Shown here one piece after another: positions 17,510-58,017 of a stretch of DNA of 64,000 nucleotides; position 1 is the first letter of the stretch, and each line of letters opens with the position of its first letter. This stretch comes from Chloroflexota bacterium. GTDB lineage: Bacteria; Chloroflexota; Anaerolineae; UBA1429. The DNA is taken from positions 24,654 to 88,653 of the forward strand of contig JAJFUJ010000127.1 in assembly GCA_021372475.1 (NCBI GenBank). Reading direction: 5' to 3'. Under the pieces are notes generated by a model that worked only from the letters and a program-made list of their open reading frames with translations, was not told the DNA's origin and did not search any database. The position numbers and the translations under genes were made by a program.

Positions 17510-18670
17510 ATGGCAGTTTACGAAGAGGATAACGGACAAGCGAAAATCAAGGTGGTTGGGGTTGGCGGTGGGGGCTGCAACGCCATTGACCGCATGATCG
17601 AGGTGGGCGTGGGAGGTGTCGAGTTTATCTCGATGAATACCGATGCGCAGGCGCTGCGCAACTGCCATGCCTCTGTCAGGCTGCAAATCGGCGCTGACGT
17701 GACTCGCGGGCTGGGCACAGGGGGCAACCCCAGCATCGGCGCTAAAGCGGCAGAGGAGTCTTCATCGGATATTCAGGAAATCCTGAGCGGCGCGGATATG
17801 GTATTCATTACGGCTGGCATGGGCGGCGGCACCGGAACCGGCGGCGCCCCGGTAATTGCCAAAATAGCCAAGTCGATGGGGGCTTTGACGGTAGCGGTTG
17901 TCACTAAGCCGTTTACCTTTGAGGGAGCGCGCAGGCTCAAGGCCGCGATGGACGGCTTGACAGCGCTCGAGAGCAGCGTAGATACGATGATTGTCATTCC
18001 CAACGACCGATTGCTGCAAATTGTGGATAAGAAAGCTTCGCTGCCGGCCGCCTTTTTATCCGCGGATGAGTTGCTGCGTCAGGGTATTCAAGGCATCTCA
18101 GAGCTCATCACGGGCACCGGCCTGGTAAACGTCGATTTCAACGATGTGCGCGCCATTATGGGCAACGGCGGTTCGGCCCTGATGGCTATCGGCGTGGGCT
18201 CCGGCGACAACCGCGCCGCGGACGCAGCTATGGCGGCGATCAACAGCAAACTGCTTGATGTCTCGATCGACGGCGCCAAAGGCGTGCTCTACAACATCAA
18301 GGGCGACCATTCGTTGACGCTCATCGAGGTCAACGAAGCGGCCGAGTTGATCAAGCAGATGGTCGACCCGGAGGCGAATATCATCTTTGGTACGGCCATC
18401 GATCCGAATATGGGTGACCAGGTGCAGGTGACAGTAATCGCCACGGGATTTTCAACCAACGTCAGGCCGTCGGCTATGCGCCCGCAGGTTCAGCGCGAGC
18501 CAGTCAATGCCCAGCGTACGGCCTCCGCAGGGCAGCAGCAGCAACAACAACAGCCACCTTTTCGACGCTCGAGCGCGATAATCGATTTCCCGACGTCAAC
18601 GACATCTTCATCCAACCGGCAGAGCGATGAGGTGCCATCATTCCTGAGAAAAACCCAACAGCGCAGTTAA
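17510..18670 (+). CDS. ftsZ: Cell division GTPase FtsZ.
   Basis: Tubulin signature GGGTGTG and [15 protein letters not shown]-rich disordered C-terminal linker (QQQQQQQ) precedes the conserved C-terminal peptide. Confidence 0.95.
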
Positions 18671-18686
18671 TGACGAGGAATAAAGC

Positions 18687-19157
18687 ATGAAGTGCCCTTT
18701 TTGTGGCGGGATCGAGTCGAGGGTCATCGATACGCGCGAAGTAGGCGATGGCATCAGGCGGCGTCGCGCCTGCCAACAGTGCCAACAGCGCTATACGACG
18801 TATGAGGCCGTCGTCAAAGTGACCTTGCAGATCGTCAAACGCGATGGCCGACGTGAGGACTTTGACCGGCAAAAGCTGTTCGAGGGTATCTGGAAAGCCT
18901 GCACGAAACGTCCCATCGCGAGCGATGCTGTGGAGGAGATGGTCGACGATATCGAAAACCGCCTCTACAGCCTTGGACAAGCAGAAGTAGAAAGCAAGGT
19001 TATCGGCGAAATGGTGATGGAACGCCTGCAAAAGCTCGATCCGGTGGCTTATGTGCGCTTTGCTTCGGTGTACCGCTCTTTTGCCGACCTTGCCACGCTC
19101 AAACGCGAAGTGGATGGCATGATTCAACGCGGCGAGGACAAAGACCAAGCTACTTAA
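18687..19157 (+). CDS. nrdR: Transcriptional repressor NrdR.
   Basis: MKCPFCGG...CQQCQQRYTTYE zinc ribbon plus an ATP-cone; 156 aa. Confidence 0.93.
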   Translation: MKCPFCGGIESRVIDTREVGDGIRRRRACQQCQQRYTTYEAVVKVTLQIVKRDGRREDFDRQKLFEGIWKACTKRPIASDAVEEMVDDIENRLYSLGQAEVESKVIGEMVMERLQKLDPVAYVRFASVYRSFADLATLKREVDGMIQRGEDKDQAT

Positions 19158-20694: not shown

Positions 20695-20768
<74 letters not shown>

Positions 20769-20771
20769 CAG

Positions 20772-22810: not shown

Positions 22811-25642
22811 TCACCTCCTCGCCAAACGACGGTCGCGCTTACGCACAAAGAACTTGCGAATTTCATCTGTTACCAAGAGGGCGGGAATTAACGCAATCAG
22901 GAAAGGCACATTCTCCGGAGGAATTGGCCCCGTGTTGAAGATAGTTTGCAGAAATGGCACATAACTGAGCAGAATTAGAAGAATAATCTCAGCGGCGATG
23001 CCGAGCCATAACAGCCTGTTGTTGAACAATGGATACTTGAACACAGAGATACGCTCCGTGCGCTGGGCAAACAGGTTACCAATTTGTGTGGCCACTGTGG
23101 CTGCCAAGGTCATCGTTGTTGCAATCGTATACACTTGGCCTGAATCAGGCAATCCCAGGATTTGTCCGGTGTAGCCGTGCGTCCAGTAATGGAAGAAAAA
23201 GGCCAGCATAGCCAGAGTGCCCTGCACAGTACCCAGGATTAGGTAAGCGCGCACGAGCAGTGCCCCAGAGATGACATGCTCTTTGGGATTACGCGGTGGT
23301 CTTTCCATCAAGCCCGGCTCGGGCCGCTCGACGCCAAGTGCCAGTGCTGGCAGGATATCAGTGCCAAGATCTACTGAAAGGACCTGCATGACCGTCATAG
23401 CCAAGGGGATGCGGGTGCCGCTCAAGACATACAGAATAAAGGGATAAGCTTCGGGTGTATTGCTGGTGAAAATATAGGTACAGAATTTCTTGATATTAGC
23501 ATACACGGCGCGCCCTTCTTCGACGGCGTTGACGATGGAAGCAAAGTTGTCGTCTGTCAACACCATTGTCGCGGCTTCCTTGGCCACATCCGTGCCAGTA
23601 ATGCCCATCGCCACGCCGATATCGGCCTTCTTGAGGGCCGGGGCATCGTTCACGCCGTCGCCTGTTACGGCCACCACATGGCCTAATTCCTGTAAGTTGG
23701 CGACGACGCGCAGCTTGTGCTCGGGGGCAACACGCGCAAAAATAACCTCGCCCTTGAGTGCCTGCTTGAGCGCGTCATCGGACATACCTTCGAGCTCAAC
23801 GCCGGTGATGATGCGCGCCTGACTGCCAGAGACAATGTTGATACGTTGGGCGATGCTGGATGCCGTCAGGCCATAGTCGCCAGTGATCATGATAATGCGG
23901 ATGCCGGCATGATGGCAGCGTTCGACGGCGTTGGCCACCTCGGGACGCGGCGGGTCCATCATCGCTTCCAGGCCGATAAAGGTCAATTCGGACTCGACGT
24001 TCTCGGCATTCCAATAACCAAGAGGCTGCCGTTGGCTGACCTCGTCAGTCAGGTTGCGGGCGGCTACAGCCAGCACGCGCAGCCCGGTACGGGCATATTC
24101 ATCGTTGGCAGATAAAATTGCTTTGCGCCGCGTTTCATCCAGCGGTTGACGCTGCCCCTGCCACAGGATATATGAGCACAAGTCGAGCGTCTCCCGGGGA
24201 GCGCCCTTAACATAGGCCATCAGGCTAGCCCCCTGCATATGCAGCGTCGTCATGCGCTTGCGGCGCGAATCGAAAGGAATCTCGCGCATACGGGGCTGTG
24301 CCTGCAGTTCGGCGCCCACATCAATCCCCGCTTTACGGGCGGCCACGATAAGTGCGGCCTCTGTCGGGTCGCCCAGGATATTCCAACGGTCAACCTCTGC
24401 GGTTGGGGCGTTCAGCCGAGCGTTGTTGCATAAGCTCGCTGCCAAGAGGAGCTTGTGCACATCGCTTTGAGGCGAGATACTCAGGCTTTCTGCACCTTCC
24501 TGGATCTTGCCTTCAGGCGCATAACCAGCGCCGGTGACGGCGAGGTTGTGCCCGCCAACCCACAAGTTACGGACAGTCATCTCGTTTTGTGTCAGTGTGC
24601 CGGTTTTATCGGTACAAATAACGGTGGTACAACCCAAGGTCTCTACAGATGAGAGCTTCTTCACCAAGGCGTTGCGTTTCGCCATGCGTTGTACACCCAT
24701 TGCCAGCGACATCGTAACCGTCGGGAGCAAACCCTCAGGTATAAAAGCCACTGCCATACCCATCATAAAAATAAAGCCCTCAACCAATGTCACCTTGGCG
24801 ACAAGAAGTGCAAGCACAAAGAAAAGCACGCCTATTCCAATGGCAATCAACGAAACGATGCGCGTCAACCGTTGAATTTCGACTTGGAGCGGGCTGAGAT
24901 CCTCCTTCAACTGCTGCGTTAATCCGGCGATTTTGCCAAATTCGCTGTGCATACCGGTAGCAAAGACCACCGCTTTTCCGGTGCCAGAAGCCACATTAGT
25001 GCCAGCAAAAACAATATTTGGAATCTCGTGCCTGGCCAGGTCTGTGCGCAGCACCGCTTCGCTGGTTTTGCGCACGGGATGCGACTCGCCAGTTAGTGTA
25101 GACTGGTCGGTGCAAAGCTCGGATTCAAGCACCAGGCGCGCATCGGCCGAGATGCGGTCGCCTTCGCTGAGCATAATCACGTCGCCAGGGACGAGATCCT
25201 CGGCAGGAATGCGCTGCTCCCCGCCATCGCGCAAAACGCGCGCCTGCGCGGGTATCATTCTCTGCAACGCTTCGGCAGCCTTATCGGCGCGGAACTCCTG
25301 CCAGAAGCTGAACACTCCGTTGATGATGACGACCGCCCAGATAGCTATGGCTAACTGCGGCATTCCGCCAATAATTGCCGCAACGCCGCCGATCCAAAGC
25401 ATGATAGCCATCATGCTGGTAAATTGAGCCAAGAGCTTGTAAATGAGAGGCTTGCGCTTGACTTCCTTAATTGTGTTAGAACCATATTCTGTCAGCAGTT
25501 GAGGAATCTGTTTGTTGTGCAGCCCCTCGGGGCAGGTTTCCAATGCCTCATATACCGCCGATACCGGCAGCGCATGAATGCTGCCAGACAATTCCGCCAG
25601 CTTGTTCTCAACTGATGAACTCACCCAACTAACTCCTTGCAC
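22811..25642 (-). CDS. P-type cation-transporting ATPase, P2-type (Ca2+/Mg2+-like, E1-E2).
   Basis: 943 aa. Phosphorylation motif ICTDKTGTLTQNEMTV; TGES-type actuator region (LTGESHPV); hinge GDGVNDAPALKKADIG; about 10 TM helices. Confidence 0.9.
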   Translation of the reverse strand: MQGVSWVSSSVENKLAELSGSIHALPVSAVYEALETCPEGLHNKQIPQLLTEYGSNTIKEVKRKPLIYKLLAQFTSMMAIMLWIGGVAAIIGGMPQLAIAIWAVVIINGVFSFWQEFRADKAAEALQRMIPAQARVLRDGGEQRIPAEDLVPGDVIMLSEGDRISADARLVLESELCTDQSTLTGESHPVRKTSEAVLRTDLARHEIPNIVFAGTNVASGTGKAVVFATGMHSEFGKIAGLTQQLKEDLSPLQVEIQRLTRIVSLIAIGIGVLFFVLALLVAKVTLVEGFIFMMGMAVAFIPEGLLPTVTMSLAMGVQRMAKRNALVKKLSSVETLGCTTVICTDKTGTLTQNEMTVRNLWVGGHNLAVTGAGYAPEGKIQEGAESLSISPQSDVHKLLLAASLCNNARLNAPTAEVDRWNILGDPTEAALIVAARKAGIDVGAELQAQPRMREIPFDSRRKRMTTLHMQGASLMAYVKGAPRETLDLCSYILWQGQRQPLDETRRKAILSANDEYARTGLRVLAVAARNLTDEVSQRQPLGYWNAENVESELTFIGLEAMMDPPRPEVANAVERCHHAGIRIIMITGDYGLTASSIAQRINIVSGSQARIITGVELEGMSDDALKQALKGEVIFARVAPEHKLRVVANLQELGHVVAVTGDGVNDAPALKKADIGVAMGITGTDVAKEAATMVLTDDNFASIVNAVEEGRAVYANIKKFCTYIFTSNTPEAYPFILYVLSGTRIPLAMTVMQVLSVDLGTDILPALALGVERPEPGLMERPPRNPKEHVISGALLVRAYLILGTVQGTLAMLAFFFHYWTHGYTGQILGLPDSGQVYTIATTMTLAATVATQIGNLFAQRTERISVFKYPLFNNRLLWLGIAAEIILLILLSYVPFLQTIFNTGPIPPENVPFLIALIPALLVTDEIRKFFVRKRDRRLARR

Positions 25643-25795
25643 GTCGGCAGGCCGGTCATGTTGACCTTCTTGACTCCAGCCACCAAACTAATTCTATCAT
25701 TGACCTGTTGTATGCCAAGCGCACTGCTCAATCCCGGCAATTTGCAAGGCAACAAATAGGCTAGTATAGGCTCATCAATGTGCAATACCAAAAAC

Positions 25796-26788
25796 TCAAT
25801 AACCCAAGAGATCACTGGACTGAGCAAGTTCCTGCAGAGCTTGGCGCCTGCGACGGTATTCGATAATCGGGCGGTCGCCCTGGATGAGTTTTTCATCCAT
25901 ATGCAGACTGCTTTTGAGCGGTCGCTGGGTAATAACCACTCTGCGGTCCTGAGCGAGTATTTTGCGGTCGCCGATTTTTGCCCCAGCAAAAGTAAATAGC
26001 TCTCGTAGGATTGGCACACGCACTACACGCTGGTAAAAACGCACATACATCAGCGTATTAGCTTCATCGATTGGTGCAAAGACAACAACAATACGCAGAT
26101 TGTCAGAGATATGGTTCATCCACACGTTCGGCATACGCAGATGCAGGAACGGTCCGCGTGTCGGATGCACTTCATCAGGCCTTAAGGGCAGCGTACCATC
26201 ATCAATCCTGTTCTGCACCCACACTCGCAGCTCGTTATCAACCCATTCTGTCATTGGGCCGTCCACTAGAGTATAGTTACCGCGACCAATCGTGTTGTAA
26301 TGAACGAATGGAAGGTGCATGACATCGAGTTGGTTTTCAATAGCCCGCGAGTAGTGCGCTGCCCAGTGGCTGCGCAATGTATTGTAATGAAAGCCGAACA
26401 GTAGGTCTCTAAAAAATGGCACCTCCGGCAAATCATCCCTGGGCTCGCCCCACCAGAGCCATATGAACCCGCCGACCTCGCGCAGTGGATAAGAGGCTAC
26501 CTTGAATTGGCTTGGAACCAACGCAGCCCTGCCGTTAGCCGGGATGAGGACACACCGCCCCGATGTATCATACTCCAGGCCGTGGAAAGGACAGCGGATG
26601 GTATCTTGACACACCTTACCAATGTTCAGTGCCGCACCTCGATGTGCACACAGGTCGATCATACAAACCAGCTCGCCTCCGCTGGTACGCCAGAGCACGA
26701 GCCTCTCGCCCATTCGCGTCACACCCAATGGTTTGCCGCTTTTTACTTCACTGGATTCGAGAATGCCGTACCATTGATTACGGATCAT
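25796..26788 (-). CDS. Rieske [2Fe-2S] non-heme iron oxygenase family protein.
   Basis: Rieske motif CAHRGAAL...(16 residues)...CPFHG, followed by a catalytic domain with His/Asp ligand candidates. 330 aa. Confidence 0.75.
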   Translation of the reverse strand: MIRNQWYGILESSEVKSGKPLGVTRMGERLVLWRTSGGELVCMIDLCAHRGAALNIGKVCQDTIRCPFHGLEYDTSGRCVLIPANGRAALVPSQFKVASYPLREVGGFIWLWWGEPRDDLPEVPFFRDLLFGFHYNTLRSHWAAHYSRAIENQLDVMHLPFVHYNTIGRGNYTLVDGPMTEWVDNELRVWVQNRIDDGTLPLRPDEVHPTRGPFLHLRMPNVWMNHISDNLRIVVVFAPIDEANTLMYVRFYQRVVRVPILRELFTFAGAKIGDRKILAQDRRVVITQRPLKSSLHMDEKLIQGDRPIIEYRRRRQALQELAQSSDLLGY

Positions 26789-26905: not shown

Positions 26906-27397
26906 TCACCGCGTCGCGATTTGCTTTGGCTCTTCCGCCAGCAAAAGGTCAATCATCGCCAGCAAGGCATCGTCAGGCAGGATGTCGGCCATCGACTCAC
27001 CATGATGCTCATAACGCAGATAGCCGCGCTGGTCGATGAGCATCAGGGCAGGCATGCGTCCGGCCTTGAACCAGTTGACTTGCTGGCCATAGGCATCGGC
27101 CACCGCGTGCAGCGAATCCGGCAACCCGATAAACGGCATCGCATTGCGCTGCCAAAAGTCAACAAAATCCTGGCGGGAATCGGGGCCGCTGATAGCAACC
27201 ACTATGTCGCGGGAAGCGAATTCTTGCCTATCCTGGCGCAACTGCGCCATGTGCCGTCGGCAGAAAGGTCAAGCGAAACCACGGTTCAATACCAGCACTA
27301 CGATGTGCCCACGTTGAGCGGAGAGGGCAAAAGGCTGGCCATTTATGTCGCTAAGCGTAAAATCAGGAGCTAGTTCAGTAGGCGGTATAAGCGGCAT
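26906..27397 (-). CDS. Candidate selenoprotein: Prx-like/TlpA-like thioredoxin-fold protein (163 aa) with an in-frame TGA (minus-strand codon at 27271-27269) in place of the first Cys of the redox motif (RGFA-U-PFC).
   Basis: The ORF track only shows the 114-aa C-terminal part (26906..27250). Reading upstream through the TGA stays in frame to an ATG at 27397 preceded by TAAGGAGG. The combined N-terminus MPLIPPTELAPDFTLSDINGQPFALSAQRGHIVVLVLNRGFA[TGA]PFCRRHMAQL... matches the AhpC/TSA-redoxin consensus (PAPDFTLxDxxGxxxxLSxxRGKxVVLxFYRGxWCPxCxxxL). A GC hairpin, GGCGCAGUUGCGCC, lies 21-34 nt 3' of the UGA (+ coordinates 27235-27248). Confidence 0.45.
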
Positions 27398-27657
27398 ACG
27401 AACCTCCTTAACACACTAGGAAGCCAGGGCATGCGCACTCTCTACAGGTTCGTTCAAAGCAGATAGAAACTCGCCCGAGCACTCTCCAGAGAGCAGTCAC
27501 TTCGACACTGCCATCCAGCGTTCAGGCTACTGGCATACCGGCACGTAAACCCAATGCGAATGGATAGCCAGCCTGAAGGGCGCCTGTGCTATTCTAAGCG
27601 GTAACGGCCGCCTTGACCAGTATCGACACCCACACGCGCCCTGGATACTGCCGCGCT

Positions 27658-28413
27658 TTACGGCGTTAAGCCCAGGATGAACGCAGCCGACGCCTCAACT
27701 AATTGCCGTTGCTGCTCCTCACGGCTGATATCCGCAGTTAAATCGCCCACCTGCTCGCCATACCAGCCAAAGTGCGCGTGGTTACCGCCCTCAATAGTAT
27801 GCCACATCGTGTTCGCCGGCAGCAGAGCCCGCGCATCATCCACTTCTTCAGGAGTGACCAGGCCGTCCTGCGATGCATTGATAACCAGCGTGCTCACGCT
27901 GGCTGCGGCCATACTGGCATTGTTGGCGGGATAAGCCGCCCACAGCAGCAGGCCTTGGATTTGATCGGGATGCTCGAGCGTATAACTGGCGGCCATAACG
28001 CCGCCTAACGAGTGGCCCCCAATAGCCCAGATTCGGATATCCGGGAAGGCCTCGATTACTTTAGCGGCGCTGCCCGGCGCCAATACTGCCAGGTCCAGCG
28101 GCATCTTGACGATCATTACCTGAATGCCGCGTTCAGCCAGAGCACGAGCCGCCGGCGCATAGGCGCGCGCATCGATGCGTCCGCCAGGATAGAATACCAG
28201 GCCGCGTTCCGGTTGAGCGGCCAACGGGGTGAAGCTAATCCAGCGGCTTTGCTCTGTCACCTGCACGGCAGAATCACTCTGTAGAGCTGCCAGTGCTTCC
28301 GGCATCGGCTGCGCCGGGGTAAATCCCCAGATAAAAAAGGCGGCTATCCCAAAGACGGCCATCCCCAAAATGATCCAGCCCCAGAGTTTGCGTCCAGTTT
28401 GCATGCCGTTCAC
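27658..28413 (-). CDS. Alpha/beta hydrolase (dienelactone hydrolase/esterase-like) with an N-terminal membrane anchor.
   Basis: Nucleophile elbow GGHSLGG; N-terminal hydrophobic segment (WGWIILGMAVFGIAAFFIWGF). Confidence 0.65.
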   Translation of the reverse strand: MNGMQTGRKLWGWIILGMAVFGIAAFFIWGFTPAQPMPEALAALQSDSAVQVTEQSRWISFTPLAAQPERGLVFYPGGRIDARAYAPAARALAERGIQVMIVKMPLDLAVLAPGSAAKVIEAFPDIRIWAIGGHSLGGVMAASYTLEHPDQIQGLLLWAAYPANNASMAAASVSTLVINASQDGLVTPEEVDDARALLPANTMWHTIEGGNHAHFGWYGEQVGDLTADISREEQQRQLVEASAAFILGLTP

Positions 28414-49858: not shown

Positions 49859-49906
49859 CAAAAGTGGGCGTCCTCCCACTTTTGTTATTATGGCTGTCTT
49901 TTTTAC
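49859..49906 (+). terminator. Leader hairpin plus U-tract (intrinsic terminator/attenuator candidate) between the nusA promoter and the nusA RBS.
   Basis: 10-bp stem CAAAAGTGGG/CCCACTTTTG with loop CGTCCT (49859-49884), then TTATTATGGCTGTCTTTTTT. nusA RBS GGGAGG and ATG at 49929. Confidence 0.4.
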
Positions 49907-49928
49907 AATGCGGGAGGTTTGTTTCTAG

Positions 49929-51491
49929 ATGAAGAGCGAGTTTGAGATCGCCATCACTCAACTCAGTTCGGACCGCAACCTGGCGCCCAACATCATCATC
50001 GATGCTATCGAAAAAGCGCTGGCTTCGGCCTACAAGCGCAACTTTAACAGCATGCAGAATGTGGTGGCCAAGCTCGATCCGCATACCGGCCAGGCGACTA
50101 TCTATGTCCAAAAGCTGGTGGTCGAAGAGGTAGAGGACGAGGAGACGCAGCTTGCGCTGGCCGAAGCGCGCAAAACGAAGGCTACCGCGCAGATAGGCGA
50201 CGTGCTCGAGTTTGAGATGACGCCCAAGAATTTCGGGCGGATTGCCGCGCAGACAGCCAAACAAGTCATTATGAGCAAGATCCGCGATGCCGAGCGTGAT
50301 TCTGTTTATCTGGAATATCAGGACCGCGCCGGCGAAATCATCAACGGCATTGTGCGCAATATCGATGCGCGTACACACGCCATCACCATCAGCCTAGGCA
50401 AGGCGGAGGCTATCCTAGACCCGGCCGAACAGATCCCCGGTGAGCACTACCGCTTTAACCAGCGCCTGCGCGTTTACCTGATGGAAGTCGAGCGTGGGAC
50501 GGGGCATAGCCCGCAGATTACCGTATCGCGCACCCACAAAGGCTTGCTGCGTCGGTTGTTGGAAATGGAAGTGCCTGAGATTTATAACGGCGTCGTCGAG
50601 ATCAAGTCAGTTGCCCGCGAGCCTGGCTCACGCTCCAAGGTGGCCGTGGCCGCGATACAGCCGAACATCGATCCCGTCGGCTCGTGCGTGGGGCCGCGCG
50701 GTGTGCGCATCCAGAACATTGTCAATGAGCTCAACGGTGAAAAGATCGATGTGGTAGCCTGGTCATCCGATATGTCTGTGTATATCTCCAATTCGCTCAG
50801 CCCGGCCAAAGTTACGGCCGTGTATATGAACGAGGCCGAGAAGACCGCCAAAGTCGTCGTGCCGGATAAGTCGTTATCGTTGGCCATCGGCAAAGAGGGG
50901 CAGAATGCTCGCCTGGCAGCCAAACTGACGGGCTGGCGCATCGACATCCGCAGTGAAACCGAGGCGGCTGACGACCAGGAACGTCTGGCGGCGGAAGCAG
51001 CCGCGGCGGCAGCCCAGGCTCAGGAGCAGCAGGCAGCACGTGAAGCCGCTGCCCGTCTACTGGCTGAAGCAACTGCTTCGTTGGATGAAGAGGAAGGTCT
51101 GAAAGAGCCGCAAGAGGAACTGGCGGAGCCAACCACGGCCGTGGAAGATGAATCCCTCAGCCAGGAGCCGCTCGTAGAATGGCCTGAACCCGAACCAGAA
51201 GCGGCAGTCGAGGAGATTACCGAGCCAATAGACGAGGAGACTACTATACTGGCAGCCGTTGAACCCGAGCCAGTCCCCGAGGCGCCCACTTCGAAAACCC
51301 TTGAAGAAGAGGTAATTGAAGAGCCGTCTGAGGATGAAGAAGGTGAGCACAAGGAAAATAAGCCGGCTCGCAAGGACAAAAGCAAGCAGCGTATCCTGGT
51401 CTATGACGAACGGCTTGGCCGTGTCGTTTCGAAAAAGCGGCGCAAGCCCGGGCGCTCCGGCGGGTGGAGTTACGATGAGGATGAGGAGTAG
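49929..51491 (+). CDS. nusA: Transcription termination/antitermination factor NusA with a long acidic (E/A-rich) C-terminal extension.
   Basis: NusA N-terminal domain (…[14 protein letters not shown]…), S1 and two KH domains (…[22 protein letters not shown]…; …[21 protein letters not shown]…). About 170 extra residues rich in E, A and P. Confidence 0.93.
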
Positions 51492-51500
51492 TTCCAGGCG

Positions 51501-51794
51501 GTGACACCGGGTAAGCAACCACGGCAGCGCAAGCAGCCGCAGCGCACTTGCATCGGATGCCGCCAGGTCAAGCCCAAGCGGGAACTGGTGCGCATCGTTC
51601 GCACGCCTGCCGGCGAGGTGTTACTGGATCCTACCGGCAAGGCGGCCGGACGAGGGGCTTATGTCTGTAAGCGCAAGGCATGTTTGTTGACGGCGCTGGA
51701 GCACAACCGCCTTGAACATGCGCTAGAGATCAGCCTGACGCCTGAGCAGCGCACGCTGTTAGCGAGTGCGGCTGAGGCAATGGGTGATGAATAA
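51501..51794 (+). CDS. ylxR: YlxR/RnpM-family (DUF448) RNA-binding protein.
   Basis: RTCIGCRQVKPKRELVRIV...GRGAYVC conserved YlxR motifs; sits between nusA and infB. GTG start. Confidence 0.7.
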   Translation: MTPGKQPRQRKQPQRTCIGCRQVKPKRELVRIVRTPAGEVLLDPTGKAAGRGAYVCKRKACLLTALEHNRLEHALEISLTPEQRTLLASAAEAMGDE

Positions 51795-52057
51795 TCGTGC
51801 TCAAATGGTAAGGATAGAGGTGAAACGCACAGATCTAGGCCTAGGAAGCGGCGCAGATACGGCGTCGTCCGTCCGGGCCTGCGATGCGACGAAGGGGCAG
51901 AGTATGACGCTTTGCTAATTTAGCATGCAACCATCCTCCTGCTAATCCCCTCCGGTCAGCCTGACCCCACAACAGCGGTCAGGTGCGCAGCAGGCTGCTG
52001 ACTCACTTAATCTGCCGTCAGCGCACCTCGATACGTTCAATGAAAGGGGTGAACCCC

Positions 52058-54028
52058 ATGCCAACAAAGAGCAACTCGTACCGCCCGGGAACAGGAAACC
52101 GCTCAAATAGTAGCCGTCCCGGCAATCATAGAAATTCCGGTCAGAGACAAAACCACGGACCTGCACCCCAAAGCAGGTCAAGCGCGCAGCTCAACCGCCC
52201 GAGTGCACCGCAGGCTGCTGCAGCCAAGGCTGCTGAACCATCCGTCAAATCGCTCGTGCTGCCGCCCAGGATAACCGTGCGTGATTTGGCCGAAAAGATG
52301 GGCTGCAGTCCAATCGAGCTGATCAAACAACTGATGAATGCCGGCGTCATGGCCAATATCAACCAGGAAATCGATTATGATACGGCAGCCATTGTATCCA
52401 CCGACATGGGCTTTGAAATCACAGAGTACAAGGAACCCGAGCTGGTAGTCGAGGTTCAGGAAGAACAGCCGACCGCAGCGCCCAATCGCAGGACGGTCTA
52501 TAGCGAAGAAGAACAGAAATACCTGCGCGAGCGTCCGCCGGTCGTCACTATCCTGGGGCATGTCGACCATGGCAAGACCTCGCTTTTGGATGCTATCCGC
52601 GACAGTAACCAGGCTGCTCACGAGGCCGGCTTTATCACTCAGCACATCGGCGCATACCAGGTAACGGCGCAGGATAAGCTCATCACCTTCCTGGACACGC
52701 CGGGACATGAGGCGTTCACCGCAATGCGCGCCCGCGGCGCCAACCTCACGGATATCGCCGTGTTGGTAGTGGCAGCCGATGACGGCGTGCAGCCGCAAAC
52801 CAAGGAGGCCATCAACCACGCCCGCTCAGCTCAGGTGCCCATCATAATCGCACTCAACAAAATAGACTTGCCGACTGCCAATCAGGAGCGCGTAAAACAG
52901 CAGTTGGCCGATGTGGGATTGGTAGTCGAAGACTATGGCGGCGATACCATCTGCGTGCCTGTCTCAGCCAAAGCTAAAAAGGGAATCGACGACCTACTGG
53001 GGATGATCCTGTTGGTGGCTGAAATGGCCAACTACAAGGCCAACCCGCGCCGCAACCCGACGGGGGTGGTCATCGAAGGGCGCCAGGACAGCCAGCGCGG
53101 CCCCACCGCTACCCTGCTGGTGCAGGAAGGCACACTTAAAATCGGCGACGCTCTGTTAGTGGGCACATGCGCCGGTAAAATTCGTGCAATGTTCGATTAT
53201 CAGAACAAGCCGATCAAGCGCGCGACGCCCTCTGCTCCGGTGGTGGTCATCGGCTTGAACGGCGTGCCGCAAGCCGGCGACCACTTTGAGGTTGTCGAAA
53301 ACGAGCGCATTGCCCGCGAACGGGCAGCCTCCCTGCTGCAGGCCTCGCGCGAGAGCGCCGCTGCGCCGGCGCAGGCGATCAGCCTGGATGAGATATTCGC
53401 TCAGGCGCAAGCCGGCCAGATTCAGACGCTCAACCTGATCCTCAAGGCTGACGTACAAGGCAGCCTCGAGCCAATCCGCGGTTCGCTTGAGAAACTCGAA
53501 GTCGGCGAGCTAAAGGTGCGTATCGTGCATGAAGGAGTCGGCGCTATCAGCGAGTCAGATGTGTCGCTGGCAACGGCCGACCACGCCATCATCATCGGCT
53601 TCAATGTCAATATTGACCCGGCGGCCGCGCGCCAGGCCGAGCAGAATAAAATCGATATACGCACCTATAATATCATCTATCGGGTGATTGAGGATGTGCA
53701 AAGCGCCCTCACGGGCATGCTCGCGCCGACCTTCCACGAGGTGTCACAAGGTAAGGCTGTGGTGCGTCAAGTATTCAGTATCACTAAAGCCGGCAAGATC
53801 GCCGGCAGCCAGGTTCAGGAAGGCAAAGCGCTACGCAACGCCCAGGTGCGGGTGCTCCGCGGTGACAAGGTGCTGTTCGAGGGCAAAGTGTCTTCGCTCA
53901 AGCGCTTTACCGAAGATGTGCGCGAGGTGAACACCGGCATGGAGTGCGGTATCGGCATCGAAGGCTTTGACGATCTGATGCCGAACGATATTATCGAATT
54001 CTATACGATGGAGCAGGATAAACGGTAA
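52058..54028 (+). CDS. infB: Translation initiation factor IF-2.
   Basis: G-domain [30 protein letters not shown]-terminal beta-barrels. ATG at 52058 preceded by AAAGGGGTGA; the ORF track begins at 51983. Confidence 0.93.
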
Positions 54029-54095
54029 TCCGCGCTCCGGCAGATAGGTCGGATGATAGTCAGGATTCCCGAGAGTTGAGACTGAGGGTAAATGT

Positions 54096-54557
54096 ATGCC
54101 AGGTTTCAGAGTCCAAAAGGCTGCTAGTTTTATCCGCGATGAGCTGATTTTACTCCTGCGGGATAAAGTCAAGGACCCGCGCGTCAAGAACCTCACCGTG
54201 ACCGAGGTCAGCCTGACGCCCGACCGGCGTATCGCGCGGGTATATGTCGCCAACTATGGCACCGAAGACGAACTCAAAGAGGGATTGGAAGGCCTGAAGA
54301 GCGCCCAGGGGCTACTGCGGCGGGAGATTGCCGCGCTTTTGCACTGGAACTTTGCTCCTTCCCTCGAGTTCCGAGTCGACAGCTCCTGGCACTATGGCCA
54401 GCGTATCGACGCGTTGATCGACCAGATTAGCAGCGAAGCCGGTGCCGCTATAAATGAAGGTGACGAAGACAGTACCGTTGAAAATGAGGTTGACGACGAA
54501 GACAGCGCCGCACAAGATGCGAGTGACGACAAGGAGCCTGGCGATGGCGACAAGTGA
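54096..54557 (+). CDS. rbfA: Ribosome-binding factor A, with an acidic C-terminal tail.
   Basis: KH-like RbfA core (…RVKNLTVTEVSLTPDRRIARVYV…) and a D/E-rich tail. Confidence 0.85.
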   Translation: MPGFRVQKAASFIRDELILLLRDKVKDPRVKNLTVTEVSLTPDRRIARVYVANYGTEDELKEGLEGLKSAQGLLRREIAALLHWNFAPSLEFRVDSSWHYGQRIDALIDQISSEAGAAINEGDEDSTVENEVDDEDSAAQDASDDKEPGDGDK

Positions 54558-55530
54558 CCGCGACCGGCTCAGCGACCGCCTTTTCGCCGCCAAAAGCGCT
54601 CTGGTTATCGCGCACATTATGCCAGATGCCGATACCCTGGGCGCCGCCCTGGGGCTTGGGCTAAGCCTGCGTTCGCTTGGGATGACCGTCCACCTGGCCT
54701 GCGCAGACCCAGTGCCTACAGAGTTGCGCTTTTTACCTTCCGCCCAGGAAGTCCAACCCAGGTTGTATGCTGGCGAGGAAATCATCGTGACGGTAGATAT
54801 CAGCGACCAACAGCGTATCGGCATGTTGTATGATGAAAAGATATTCTCCACTGTCCCGGTGCTGGTCATCGACCACCATATCACCAACACTCGCTTTGGC
54901 GCCCTTAACTGGGTTGCGGAAGTGCCGGCGACCAGCGAGATGATCCTGGAGCTGTTGCAGGCACATAACGTAACCATCAGCCTGGACGCGGCCACCTGCC
55001 TGCTGGCGGGCATTATCGGCGACACCCAGTGTTTCCTGACGAGCAACACCTCGCCAAGTTCACTCATTGCGGCCGCTCAACTGCAAGAGTTGGGCGCACC
55101 CTTGCGGGAAATTGCCACAACCGTGTTGAACCGGCGCCCCACTTCAGCCCTGGCGGTCTGGCGCGAGGCGTTTATCAACGCCTGCCAGGAGCCGGGCATC
55201 ATCCTCACTACCCTGGGGAGTGCGTTTTTACGCAGCGTCAGCGCGGATGATTCCAGCACCAACGGCCTCTCCTCGTGGCTGGCAGGTTTAGACGGCGTCC
55301 TTATCTCAGCCGTCCTGCGCGAAGCGGATGATGGCAGTGTGGACGTCAGCATGCGCTCGGCGCCTGAAATCAATATCGCCGTCGTCGCCCAGAACCTCGG
55401 CGGAGGCGGTCATCCTCAGGCAGCGGGCTGTGTACTCGCGGGGCCTTTGTCGTCAGCCAGCGAACGTCTGCTGGCAGAGCTGCGCCCCCTGACGGCGCGA
55501 CCTGCGCCGGTTGAGGAGCTTGTTCACTGA
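54544..55530 (+). CDS. nrnA: DHH-family phosphoesterase NrnA-like (bifunctional oligoribonuclease/pAp phosphatase).
   Basis: DHH motif (…IAHIMPDADTLGAALGL…), …VIDHHITN…, a DHHA1 C-terminal domain with GGGH (NLGGGGHPQAAG). ATG at 54544 overlaps the rbfA end. Confidence 0.8.
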   Translation: MATSDRDRLSDRLFAAKSALVIAHIMPDADTLGAALGLGLSLRSLGMTVHLACADPVPTELRFLPSAQEVQPRLYAGEEIIVTVDISDQQRIGMLYDEKIFSTVPVLVIDHHITNTRFGALNWVAEVPATSEMILELLQAHNVTISLDAATCLLAGIIGDTQCFLTSNTSPSSLIAAAQLQELGAPLREIATTVLNRRPTSALAVWREAFINACQEPGIILTTLGSAFLRSVSADDSSTNGLSSWLAGLDGVLISAVLREADDGSVDVSMRSAPEINIAVVAQNLGGGGHPQAAGCVLAGPLSSASERLLAELRPLTARPAPVEELVH

Positions 55531-55531
55531 G

Positions 55532-56413
55532 ATGCCTTCAGGTTTATTGAACGTGAACAAGCCACGTCTGCTGAGCTCGCACGATGTCGTCAACCGCGTG
55601 CGCCGCTTGACTGGCATCGACCATATCGGCCATGCCGGCACCCTCGACCCGCTGGCCAGCGGCGTGCTGGTAATCTGTGTGGAGCAGGCCACCAGAATTG
55701 CCGAATATGTCGCCAATGGACGCAAAACTTACCTGGCGACATTGCGCATCGGCGAGGAAACCAACTCGTATGACGCGGAAAGCGAGGTAATCGCCTCGCG
55801 CCCATGGGATGCTGTGCGCCGCGAAGACCTGGAGAGCGCACTGGGCACGCTGCGCGGTGAAATCGACCAGATACCGCCCATGTATTCGGCCGTCAAGCAC
55901 CACGGCAAGTCGCTCTACAAGCTGGCGCGACGCGGCATCACCATTGAACGCGAGGCGCGCCGGGTGAGCATCTACTCCTGCGAGATAACCCATTGGGGAC
56001 CGCCCCTTGTTGACTTGCGCGTCGTTTGCTCGGGCGGCACCTATATCCGTACGCTGGCGCATGATATCGGCGCAGCCCTGGGCACGGGGGCATATCTGGC
56101 CGGATTGGTGCGCGAGCGTTCGGGCAGCTTTGCGCTGGAAGATGCCGTATCCCTCGAACAACTCCAGGAAGCGGGATCCGAAGGCTGGCAGCGTTACCTG
56201 CTGCCGATGCAGGCAGGATTGGGGCATCTGCCGGGCATCAGCGTCGATAGCGTCCAGGAAGCCAGAATCTGTCAGGGGCAAATGGTGGACCTGCCAGAAC
56301 TGGCGTCCGCCGACCTAGCCTATGCCGTCAACGGCGGTGGCCAGCTCTTTGCCATCCTGCGCCGCCGTGAAGTAACCGGGCTCTGGCGGCCCGATAAGGT
56401 ACTGCATGTCTGA
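55532..56413 (+). CDS. truB: tRNA pseudouridine(55) synthase TruB.
   Basis: GLLNVNKP...HAGTLDPLASGVLVICV catalytic Asp motif; a PUA-like C-terminus. Confidence 0.9.
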   Translation: MPSGLLNVNKPRLLSSHDVVNRVRRLTGIDHIGHAGTLDPLASGVLVICVEQATRIAEYVANGRKTYLATLRIGEETNSYDAESEVIASRPWDAVRREDLESALGTLRGEIDQIPPMYSAVKHHGKSLYKLARRGITIEREARRVSIYSCEITHWGPPLVDLRVVCSGGTYIRTLAHDIGAALGTGAYLAGLVRERSGSFALEDAVSLEQLQEAGSEGWQRYLLPMQAGLGHLPGISVDSVQEARICQGQMVDLPELASADLAYAVNGGGQLFAILRRREVTGLWRPDKVLHV

Positions 56414-57392
56414 ACAAATCGCGCATCCAAGCGGAATGATAGCAAACGGCCTGGAGCTGAGCATCGTAGAGCCTGCCGCCGATACGGTGGTAACTATCGG
56501 CACTTTCGACGGCGTGCATCTGGGGCACCAGCACCTCATCAGGCAGGTCATCGCGCGCGCCCGCGAAATCGGCTGCCTGGCGGCCGCCTTAACCTTCATA
56601 CCCCATCCACGCACCGTGCTGCATCCCGAATTGCCCCTGGCATATCTCTCCACCTCGCCTGAACGCGTCCAGCGGCTAAAAGAACAGGGTTTTGACCTGG
56701 TGGTGGCAACAATGTTCACTCCAGAGTTGGCAGCTACTTCCGCCGAGGAGTTTATGACCGCACTGGTGCGCCAGGTAAGAATGCGTGAGCTGTGGGTCGG
56801 GCATGATTTCAGGCTCGGGCGTGGGCGCGAAGGCGATTTCAAAAGCCTGCGTTCGCTCGGGTGCAAGCTCGGCTATACGGTGCATCTGGTAGAGCCGCTG
56901 CTTTATGACGGGCATCCTATCAACTCGACGCGCATCCGCAAGCTTATCGCCGCCGGTGAGATGGAGCAAGCCGCGGAGTTGCTCGGACGGCGCTACAGCC
57001 TCTCAGGGCAGGTCATCGCCGGCCGGCACGTGGGGCGCTCCCTCGGTATCCGCACGGCCAATATTGCCTGCGATCCGGAGCGGGTCATCCCGGCTAACGG
57101 CGTCTACGCTGCCTGGGCAGAGGTCGCCGGCAGCCGTTATATGGCCGCCGTGAACATCGGCATCCGCCCGAGTTTCGGCCTCACCGAGCGGCTGCTCGAA
57201 GTGCATCTGTTGGATTTCGAGAATAATCTATATAATACCGAACTGAGCATCGAATTTGTGCATTATCTGCGGCCAGAGCTGCGCTTTGCTGAGGTTTCCG
57301 CGCTGGTCGCCCAGATACAGCACGATATCGCCGAAACACGCACTATCCTGCGTGCGGATACCTACCATGAGGTGGATGACAACCATGGCTAA
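56406..57392 (+). CDS. ribF: Bifunctional riboflavin kinase/FMN adenylyltransferase RibF.
   Basis: N-terminal FAD synthetase (TIGTFDGVHLGHQHLI) and C-terminal riboflavin kinase (GRHVGRSLGIRTANI... PANGVYA...). Confidence 0.9.
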   Translation: MSEQIAHPSGMIANGLELSIVEPAADTVVTIGTFDGVHLGHQHLIRQVIARAREIGCLAAALTFIPHPRTVLHPELPLAYLSTSPERVQRLKEQGFDLVVATMFTPELAATSAEEFMTALVRQVRMRELWVGHDFRLGRGREGDFKSLRSLGCKLGYTVHLVEPLLYDGHPINSTRIRKLIAAGEMEQAAELLGRRYSLSGQVIAGRHVGRSLGIRTANIACDPERVIPANGVYAAWAEVAGSRYMAAVNIGIRPSFGLTERLLEVHLLDFENNLYNTELSIEFVHYLRPELRFAEVSALVAQIQHDIAETRTILRADTYHEVDDNHG

Positions 57393-58017
57393 TATGATTA
57401 CGCTCGCACGTTTTCCAGTGCTGTTCCTTGCCATCATCCTGATGTATCTGCCGGGAGCGACGCCCAAGCTCATTGCAGCGCCAGTGGTTATCGTGTTGAT
57501 CTTGATGGACACTGTCGATGGCTGGGTAGCGCGAGCGCGTAAGGAAACCTCGCTGCTGGGCAGCGTGCTCGATATCATGGCCGACCGCTCCGTCGAAGTG
57601 GCGCTATGGATTTGCTTCGCCCACCTGCGCCTGGTTCCAGTAGTCATTCCGCTCATTTTTGCGGTGCGCGGCGTCATCGTCGATTCGTTGCGCAGCTTTT
57701 CAGTGGGCAAAGGGATGGCTCCCTTTGAGGGAATGCGTTCGCGCGCCGGACGTTGGTTGGTAGGCAGCCCATGGATGCGCAGCACCTACGGCATCAGTAA
57801 AGCCTTCTCGTTTACGGGATTGGCGCTGACTAACGCCTTGTACACCATGGCAAAGACAGGAGGCGCATCAACCAGTGCGGCAGCTACGAGCCACACTATT
57901 TTTACCATAACCAGTTGGGTAGCACTGGCGCTGTGCTTGCTGCGCGGTATCCCTGTCGTGGTGGAAGCTTTTATCTGGCTGCGCGAATACGATCATAAAC
58001 CGGACCTAGAGCCGTAA
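57385..58017 (+). CDS. CDP-alcohol phosphatidyltransferase family protein (PgsA-like).
   Basis: Signature D-G-x2-A-R...G-x3-D-x3-D (LMDTVDGWVARARKETSLLGSVLDIMADR); multi-TM. ATG at 57385 (MANMITLARF...); the ORF track starts at 57256 inside ribF. Confidence 0.7.
   Translation: MANMITLARFPVLFLAIILMYLPGATPKLIAAPVVIVLILMDTVDGWVARARKETSLLGSVLDIMADRSVEVALWICFAHLRLVPVVIPLIFAVRGVIVDSLRSFSVGKGMAPFEGMRSRAGRWLVGSPWMRSTYGISKAFSFTGLALTNALYTMAKTGGASTSAAATSHTIFTITSWVALALCLLRGIPVVVEAFIWLREYDHKPDLEP

Follow-up and report, generated by a model that had tools for sequence, protein, structure and literature searches.

The 64,000-nucleotide stretch of Chloroflexota DNA analysed here (contig JAJFUJ010000127.1, positions 24,654 to 88,653; the whole stretch is called the window below) raises the question of whether an in-frame UGA on its minus strand ends a gene or lies inside one. 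Two open reading frames (ORFs), 27269..27397 (42 aa) and 26906..27250 (114 aa), were found to share one frame on this strand and to be split by the TGA at 27271-27269 alone. An earlier sequence-only reading had claimed that the ORF caller had cut in two the gene of a thioredoxin-fold, peroxiredoxin (Prx)-like protein, in which the UGA would specify the selenocysteine (Sec, U) of a UxxC motif with the help of a bacterial selenocysteine insertion sequence (SECIS). The comparative evidence supported this claim, and because of it we consider it very likely that the UGA is decoded as Sec. It is also highly probable that the two fragments are one gene, encoding a cytoplasmic 163-residue Prx-like thioredoxin-fold oxidoreductase with the UGA as Sec43. 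The features of this gene, referred to below as the redoxin gene, are as follows.

26906..27397, minus strand: complete probable selenoprotein gene for a Prx-like, thioredoxin-fold UxxC oxidoreductase; 163 codons plus stop, with a TGA as the sole interruption
27403..27410, minus strand: ribosome-binding site (RBS) TAAGGAGG, 5 nt before the ATG, read directly from the sequence
27395..27397, minus strand: start codon ATG; the same start position, MPL, is found in the related loci L081, L082 and L105
27272..27394, minus strand: codons 2-42, N-terminal redoxin part, annotated as an orphan 42-aa ORF; inside the Pfam match
27269..27271, minus strand: in-frame UGA, putative Sec residue 43 and first UxxC position; TGA in 80/80 loci
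27260..27262, minus strand: codon TGC of Cys46, the UxxC partner and the only Cys of the protein
26909..27268, minus strand: codons 44-163, C-terminal domain part; given by the ORF caller only from Met50 on (26906..27250)
26906..26908, minus strand: TGA that ends the gene, a true stop without a SECIS behind it, as read from the sequence
27234..27249, minus strand: apical hairpin of the putative SECIS, UGGCGC-AGUU-GCGCCA, with a 6-bp stem; loop at 27243-27240
27221..27266, minus strand: outer imperfect pairing UUUCUGCC / GGCAAGAA, present in the minimum free energy (MFE) fold of the window; unsupported as part of the element

The 114-aa ORF, which had been taken for a fragment left by the caller, is in the same frame as the 42-aa ORF with the TGA between them, and the ATG at 27397 is preceded, as had been described, by a canonical RBS 5 nt upstream (27410-27403). 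Reading through the TGA gives a product of 163 aa with the motif GFA-U-PFCRRH, in which UxxC corresponds to U43-P-F-C46. The profile searches of the read-through product were carried out with Cys placed at the UGA. The result showed that the product matches, as had been proposed, the whole AhpC-TSA profile (PF00578; residues 8-129, profile positions 3-123 of 124, E = 1e-18, 68 bits with a cut-off of 26), and that it also matches Redoxin (PF08534; E = 3e-16, 60 bits with a cut-off of 26.6). The Pfam match spans the UGA, so that the 42 codons ahead of it belong to the domain and are no accidental ORF.

Relatives were collected by a genome scan, with one genome per species, using a peptide pattern from the C-terminal half of the protein, which makes the collection independent of the codon at issue. 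The result showed that at least 582 genomes, largely Chloroflexota metagenome-assembled genomes (MAGs), encode a relative. The aligned codon is TGA in 80/80 loci kept from the scan, flanked by NRGFx and PFCRRHMAQLRQDY, and the tblastn matches in these 80 loci cross the TGA in one frame, covering residues 1-150+. The carriers are mostly Chloroflexota MAGs and also belong to Bacillota, Actinomycetota, Desulfobacterota, Spirochaetota, Gemmatimonadota, Myxococcota and Bacteroidota, giving at least eight phyla. TGA was also found at the aligned position in L081, L082, L085, L105 and L106. Four of these are the closest relatives (L081, 98% identity; L082, 81%; L105, 71%; L106, 65%) and keep the TGA in 4/4 cases, and the contigs that cover the 5′ end (L081, L082 and L105) keep the start codon and the GGAGG site as well. 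The nearest relative found lies on an NCBI contig of assembly GCA_040961035.1.

The sequence upstream of the TGA, APDFTL...VLLVxNRGF, is conserved in all loci. On the downstream side, Cys46 is invariant in 81/81 sequences (codon TGC in 80 of them) and GRMP, which contains R114 and P116, is invariant in the family. Comparison with close relatives showed that synonymous differences exceed non-synonymous differences on both sides of the TGA, the ratio in the upstream codons being 17:12 for L082 and 19:15 for L105. The 42 N-terminal codons, which the ORF caller had left as an orphan, are thus conserved, and both flanks of the TGA, including these codons, are under purifying selection.

A protein search returned relatives of three kinds: proteins of 108-117 aa that start with MAQLRQD, full-length proteins with Cys at the site, and full-length proteins with Trp at the site. 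The first kind are all truncated at one and the same place. For a Trp-form relative, the DNA codon was found to be TGA, the gene caller having used code 4. The Cys-form homologs carry real Cys codons at the aligned position (TGT in L083 and TGC in L084), so that the putative Sec aligns with Cys in homologs, as the sequence-only reading had anticipated, and numerous Cys forms with CPFCRRHM exist among the metagenome relatives. In addition, two gene copies (259 and 3252) were observed on one Clostridiales contig, L031; in the second, a further in-frame stop precedes the Sec codon and the copy runs into the contig end, so that it may be a duplicate in decay or a repeat from the assembly.

Downstream of the UGA, nucleotides 23-38 (the U of UGA being 1) form the hairpin UGGCGC-AGUU-GCGCCA, with 25 nt between the UGA and the loop. 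This region had been described as an apical GC hairpin with a G-U containing loop (GGCGCAGUUGCGCC, 21-34 nt past the UGA), and folding of the sequence after the UGA bore this out: the hairpin alone has a free energy of -10.8 kcal/mol (z = -2.8), and only 1/200 shuffles was as stable. An added C/U-G pair at 27251/27232 is possible. The published bacterial SECIS model has a loop of 3-9 nt with G and then G/U in the first loop positions, a stem of 4-16 bp, a spacing of 16-37 nt between UGA and loop, and an MFE of -7.5 kcal/mol or lower (PMC13188914). The hairpin, with its AGUU loop, 6-bp stem, 25-nt spacing and -10.8 kcal/mol, lies within all of these published limits. A search of Rfam showed no known RNA family at the hairpin (the whole window at gathering threshold and a permissive scan of 27100-27450), a negative without weight in either direction, Rfam seemingly having no general bacterial SECIS model.

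The alignment showed that the hairpin is constrained at the level of single codons. All 81 sequences have the same loop, AGUU, including the synonymous positions G30 and U31. Within the hairpin, Ala is encoded by GCG in 75/76 sequences, Gln by CAG in 81/81, Leu by TTG in 81/81 and Arg by CGC or CGT only in 77/77, compared with backgrounds in the same genes of 24%, 69%, 17% and 57%, respectively; the choice between CGC and CGT gives G-C or G-U at that hairpin pair. The Pro codon adjoining the UGA uses all four codons (29/24/17/11 in 81 sequences), implying that synonymous sites are otherwise saturated. Standard pairs were found in 98.3% of the pair cells of 82 distinct sequences, compared with 25-58% when the partners were slid. 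Furthermore, four Clostridia sequences show a joint switch of two adjacent pairs, G-C/C-G becoming A-U/U-A, with the protein changing from Ala to Met and from Arg to His.

The Cys-form controls came from a metagenome scan that is biased to Cys forms, as one of its search patterns contained a Cys codon. In distant Cys forms the AQLR peptide varies and the hairpin is lost, the folding energy being only -0.5 to -4.6 kcal/mol. In a pair of tandem paralogs in L092 (2093 and 2797), the TGA of the first copy goes with an intact hairpin, whereas the second copy, with TGC, no longer has one. These two paralogs belong to a more distant, longer subfamily with the motif WFSxGLx-U/C-PFCRRHM.

The sequence-only reading had also nested the hairpin in a longer imperfect stem. 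This part of the claim did not hold beyond the closest sequences: the window and the 98% relative both have the outer pairing UUUCUGCC/GGCAAGAA, but it is not conserved, being absent from L082, L105, L106 and the alifold consensus, and the longer lower stem was rejected as a part of the SECIS. For the apical hairpin, the established bacterial mechanism offers a route from UGA to Sec: SelB carrying Sec-tRNA(Sec) would bind UGGCGC-AGUU-GCGCCA in the mRNA, with its loop 25 nt past the UGA, and the UGA would consequently be read as Sec and not as a stop.

The structure predicted for a Cys homolog of 52% identity (pLDDT 89) showed a Prx/ResA fold, with a TM-score of 0.85 to Bcp1. The same model is also near ResA-type oxidoreductases and places Cys44, the equivalent of the Sec, just ahead of the helix 45-56. 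At the sequence level, the best PDB match is the Geobacter thioredoxin-family protein 3hdc (E = 1e-9), whose CPYC lines up with UPFC. CPHC of ResA does so too, C46 falling opposite the second Cys of this CxxC. In the alignment with the BCP protein 2ywn, which has PxxxTxxC, R39 takes the place of the Pro, U43 that of the Thr and C46 that of the peroxidatic Cys. The invariant P116 aligns with the BCP catalytic Arg and occupies the cis-Pro position, where R-M-P matches R-L-P of 3hdc. By the UPFC and P116 alignments, the active site has a thioredoxin arrangement (CxxC plus a Pro loop) within a Prx-like scaffold. The UGA had been assigned to the resolving/peroxidatic Cys; the UxxC motif stands, with the UGA at the first Cys of the thioredoxin/ResA CxxC, but the position is not that of the peroxidatic Cys and corresponds instead to the Thr of TxxC.

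The best NCBIfam match was NF040769 (SelL-related redox protein; E = 3.5e-15, 56.1 bits, residues 10-88 only), the curated cut-off of 120 bits not being reached. No signal peptide or membrane segment was found in the protein: the N-terminus, MPLIPPTELAPDF, is polar, and the maximum 19-residue hydropathy is 1.43, in the C-terminal helix. In the mechanism that we propose, Sec43 would cap the N-terminus of the first helix, the position that the attacking Cys has in thioredoxin, ResA and TlpA, and would most likely attack a disulfide or another oxidised substrate. The oxidised state would then be a Sec43-Cys46 selenenylsulfide, which thioredoxin or another thiol reductant may return to the reduced form.

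The alternative that survives best keeps the gene and the Sec decoding and differs in the chemistry: the protein would be a peroxidase, in which Sec43 reacts with peroxide as in glutathione peroxidase and is resolved by Cys46. The Sec of glutathione peroxidase is likewise found at the N-terminus of the first thioredoxin-fold helix. The AhpC/TSA domain, the presence of BCP-type peroxiredoxins among the best fold matches (TM 0.85 to Bcp1) and the apparently cytoplasmic nature of the protein, with neither signal peptide nor membrane segment, also agree with a peroxidase. However, the Prx signature is absent, the Pro and Thr of PxxxTxxC being Arg39 and Sec43 and the catalytic Arg being Pro116, and the motif together with this Pro corresponds to the thioredoxin/ResA arrangement. 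Moreover, the literature gives Prx-like selenoproteins a thioredoxin-like UxxC in place of TxxU (PMC1088965). A peroxidase is therefore possible but doubtful, and an oxidoreductase acting on disulfides or other oxidised substrates is preferred.

Much less can be said for a dead gene, in which a Cys codon, TGC or TGT, would have been mutated to TGA or misread as TGA. A single substitution separates TGA from TGC/TGT, Cys-form homologs exist and no Sec machinery gene was found within the 64-kb window, all of which would fit a pseudogene or a sequencing error. Against it stand the TGA in 80/80 independent loci and in four closer relatives, the purifying selection on both flanks, the retained RBS and start, and the hairpin after the codon, which is fixed at synonymous sites. 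A pseudogene or a sequencing error is very improbable. Just as improbable is that the UGA is passed without Sec, either by near-cognate read-through with Trp or Cys, or by termination and re-initiation at Met50 to give a truncated protein. Low-level UGA read-through is common in bacteria, and Met50 (ATG 27250) lies 18 nt downstream of the UGA. However, the product starting at Met50 would miss three strands and the entire active site, a hairpin with a G-U loop at SECIS spacing is conserved with the TGA (and kept by a few Cys forms), and neither read-through nor re-initiation explains the codon-level fixation of GCG-CAG-TTG-CGY.

A reassigned genetic code (4 or 25), in which UGA would be a sense codon, fits the fact that some database entries of the family are translated with Trp at the site, but it is almost certainly wrong, as TGA terminates 19/51 long ORFs in the window, the redoxin gene included, no other window gene needs an internal TGA, and the carriers belong to standard-code phyla. 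In a six-frame scan of the window for ORF pairs split by one TGA, no other case was found beyond overlaps with real genes or adjacent genes. Taken together, the conservation of the TGA, the selection on its flanks and the ordinary use of TGA as a stop make it almost certain that the gene is neither dead nor misread and that the genetic code is not a reassigned one.

Several observations weigh against decoding of the UGA as Sec in a redox enzyme of the kind proposed. No selA, selB, selC or selD was found within the 64-kb window. The only tRNA in the window is a tRNA-Val, and no tRNA-Sec was found there or in 60 related loci; the ten window ORFs of SelA/SelD-like size are all unrelated genes; and tblastn with an approximate E. 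coli SelD query gave no match in either the window or the related loci, a negative that is not decisive. With 6 bp, the hairpin is short and, as far as the alignment indicates, has no conserved lower stem. The compensatory changes all come from one clade and may for that reason reflect a single event. A few Cys forms retain the hairpin, so that its presence alone does not prove current use of Sec; these are presumably recent Sec-to-Cys changes, and one of them shows a further compensatory pair. No conserved operon partner was found when the neighbours were clustered in ~85 loci, and the chemistry and the substrate are inferred from the fold and the motif.

Catalogues have listed UxxC Prx-like selenoproteins (PF00578) since 2004-2005 (Kryukov and Gladyshev, 2004; Zhang et al., 2005, 2006, 2008). 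The 'Prx-like 1' selenoproteins, with 225 sequences in GOS, are abundant in metagenomes, a 'Redoxin family protein' with UxxC is among the catalogued selenoproteins (PMC13188914), and the catalogued reference for the Prx-like thiol:disulfide oxidoreductase is WP_010940744.1; HEU0032618.1 is a catalogued UxxC selenoprotein of the Redoxin family. By its domain and its motif description, the redoxin is a further member of this known kind of UxxC Prx-like selenoprotein, in the same subfamily or a sister one. It shares with the Prx-like thiol:disulfide oxidoreductases the PF00578 domain, the UxxC motif, a bacterial SECIS directly after the UGA and the existence of Cys homologs, and both occur in lineages rich in anaerobes, Syntrophaceae and Clostridia among them. 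A Prx-like selenoprotein is listed for Syntrophus, and Syntrophaceae MAGs (L015 and L048) are among the carriers of the redoxin family; this link to the catalogued proteins is suggestive only. In contrast to the catalogue, the Sec form dominates here (80/80 loci) and the carriers are mostly Chloroflexota.

The ResA/TlpA oxidoreductases and 3hdc have the same fold, their CxxC aligns residue for residue with UxxC, and the Pro of the cis-Pro loop is kept (R-M/L-P); however, they are Cys proteins that are membrane-anchored or exported, whereas the redoxin has the putative Sec and no signal or membrane segment, and the identity is ~25-31%. Sec-containing Prx (TxxU) and BCP/PrxQ share the Pfam domain and come closest in overall fold (Bcp1, TM 0.85), Prx and the redoxin both being selenoprotein families in the AhpC/TSA clan. 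In these proteins, however, Sec or Cys is second in TxxC/U, while in the redoxin the putative Sec is first and replaces the Thr, and the Prx Pro and Arg are not conserved. NF040769, which covers relatives of selenoprotein L, is likewise a Prx-like redox family with Sec-containing members, but the redoxin differs from its members in reaching 56 bits against a cut-off of 120, with a partial match over residues 10-88. As for the RNA element, the SECIS of E. coli fdhF and Moorella fdhA is a coding-region hairpin just past the UGA with a small apical loop and, at loop positions 2-3, the G-U bases that SelB recognises. The redoxin hairpin resembles it in its place in the coding region after the UGA and in its small loop with G-U at positions 2-3, but has no bulged U and no conserved lower helix, lies with 25 nt to the loop and has no Rfam match.

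The main value of the finding is for annotation: the 42-aa and 114-aa orphan ORFs are to be merged into one 163-residue selenoprotein. The 80 related loci call for the same merge, as do, in all probability, many of the genomes with a relative, of which there are at least 582. Mis-splitting of selenoprotein genes in annotation is a recognised, systematic problem (PMC13326102). The gene also marks its source organism as a probable Sec user. It would furthermore be a natural example of an mRNA structure that constrains a protein, the MAQLR peptide and its codons being frozen together with the UGA, and the alignment could be used as a compact, well-supported bacterial SECIS model. Knowledge of selenoproteins as such is unchanged, and the gene is an ordinary one for the field.

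It is conceivable, and we put it forward only tentatively, that the family is a distinct, almost obligately Sec-containing subfamily, NRGFx-U-PFCRRHMAQLRQDY, that has no catalogue entry of its own, with one nearly invariant SECIS, a distribution over at least eight phyla and a recurrent upstream Abhydrolase_5 gene. If this were true, it would imply either that the gene spread horizontally together with its SECIS or that SelB and the hairpin are bound by an unusually strict constraint, one that also fixes four residues of the enzyme. No NCBIfam model reaches its cut-off for this family, so that, if the subfamily is distinct, standard annotation would split the gene everywhere.

The genes downstream of the redoxin gene on the minus strand are those that had been named from the sequence, i.e., a Rieske/VanA_C oxygenase gene, a P-type ATPase gene and two TrkA genes. 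The minus strand showed no terminator-like site from the redoxin stop to the Rieske start, and the redoxin gene may therefore be co-transcribed with the genes downstream. The Rieske gene adjoins the redoxin gene only in the window and in L106. The E1-E2 cation-transporting ATPase gene (22811-25642, minus strand) is an uninterrupted ORF of 943 aa with no internal TGA; its family includes selenoprotein members (Peng et al., 2016). On the upstream side lie an Abhydrolase_5 gene and then a divergent short-chain dehydrogenase/reductase (SDR) gene. The Abhydrolase_5 gene (dienelactone-hydrolase-like; 27658-28413, minus strand) is the next gene upstream, in the same orientation, both in the window and in ~8 other loci (recorded for L007, L008, L030, L080, L081, L089 and L090), and lies within 1-3 kb in four more. 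Present in about a dozen of the ~85 loci clustered, it is the only recurrent neighbour of the redoxin gene. A sigma-70-like promoter match, TGGTCA-17-TAGAAT (27591-27619, minus strand), was noted in the 260-nt gap between the Abhydrolase_5 and redoxin genes.

Comparison of the window with L081 showed that the two are collinear from ftsZ to the SDR gene, with 93-99% protein identity. At 22811-26788 of the window, compared with 2483-5583 of L081, L081 has no Rieske/VanA_C gene between the redoxin and P-type ATPase genes, and its ATPase is only 87% identical, which suggests a local insertion/deletion or a recombination patch. A 150-aa ORF on the plus strand, antisense to the redoxin gene (26921-27373), was rejected as a gene, its 'homologs' being merely the opposite strand of the redoxin gene in other loci. 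This shadow ORF is longer than either annotated fragment, and there is a risk that it is mis-called as a gene. Elsewhere in the window, a cell-division/cell-wall (dcw-type) cluster extends up to ftsZ (17510-18670) and is followed by nrdR (18687-19157), the ORFs farther to the 5′ side being assigned by size and N-terminal sequence only. The other content noted (1-20800 and 49900-57400) includes a tetratricopeptide repeat (TPR) protein gene, the tRNA-Val gene (20695-20769), a probable nusA-infB stretch, truB and ribF. By their similarities, the neighbouring genes give a weak pointer to Chloroflexota. The GC content of the window is 58.9%.

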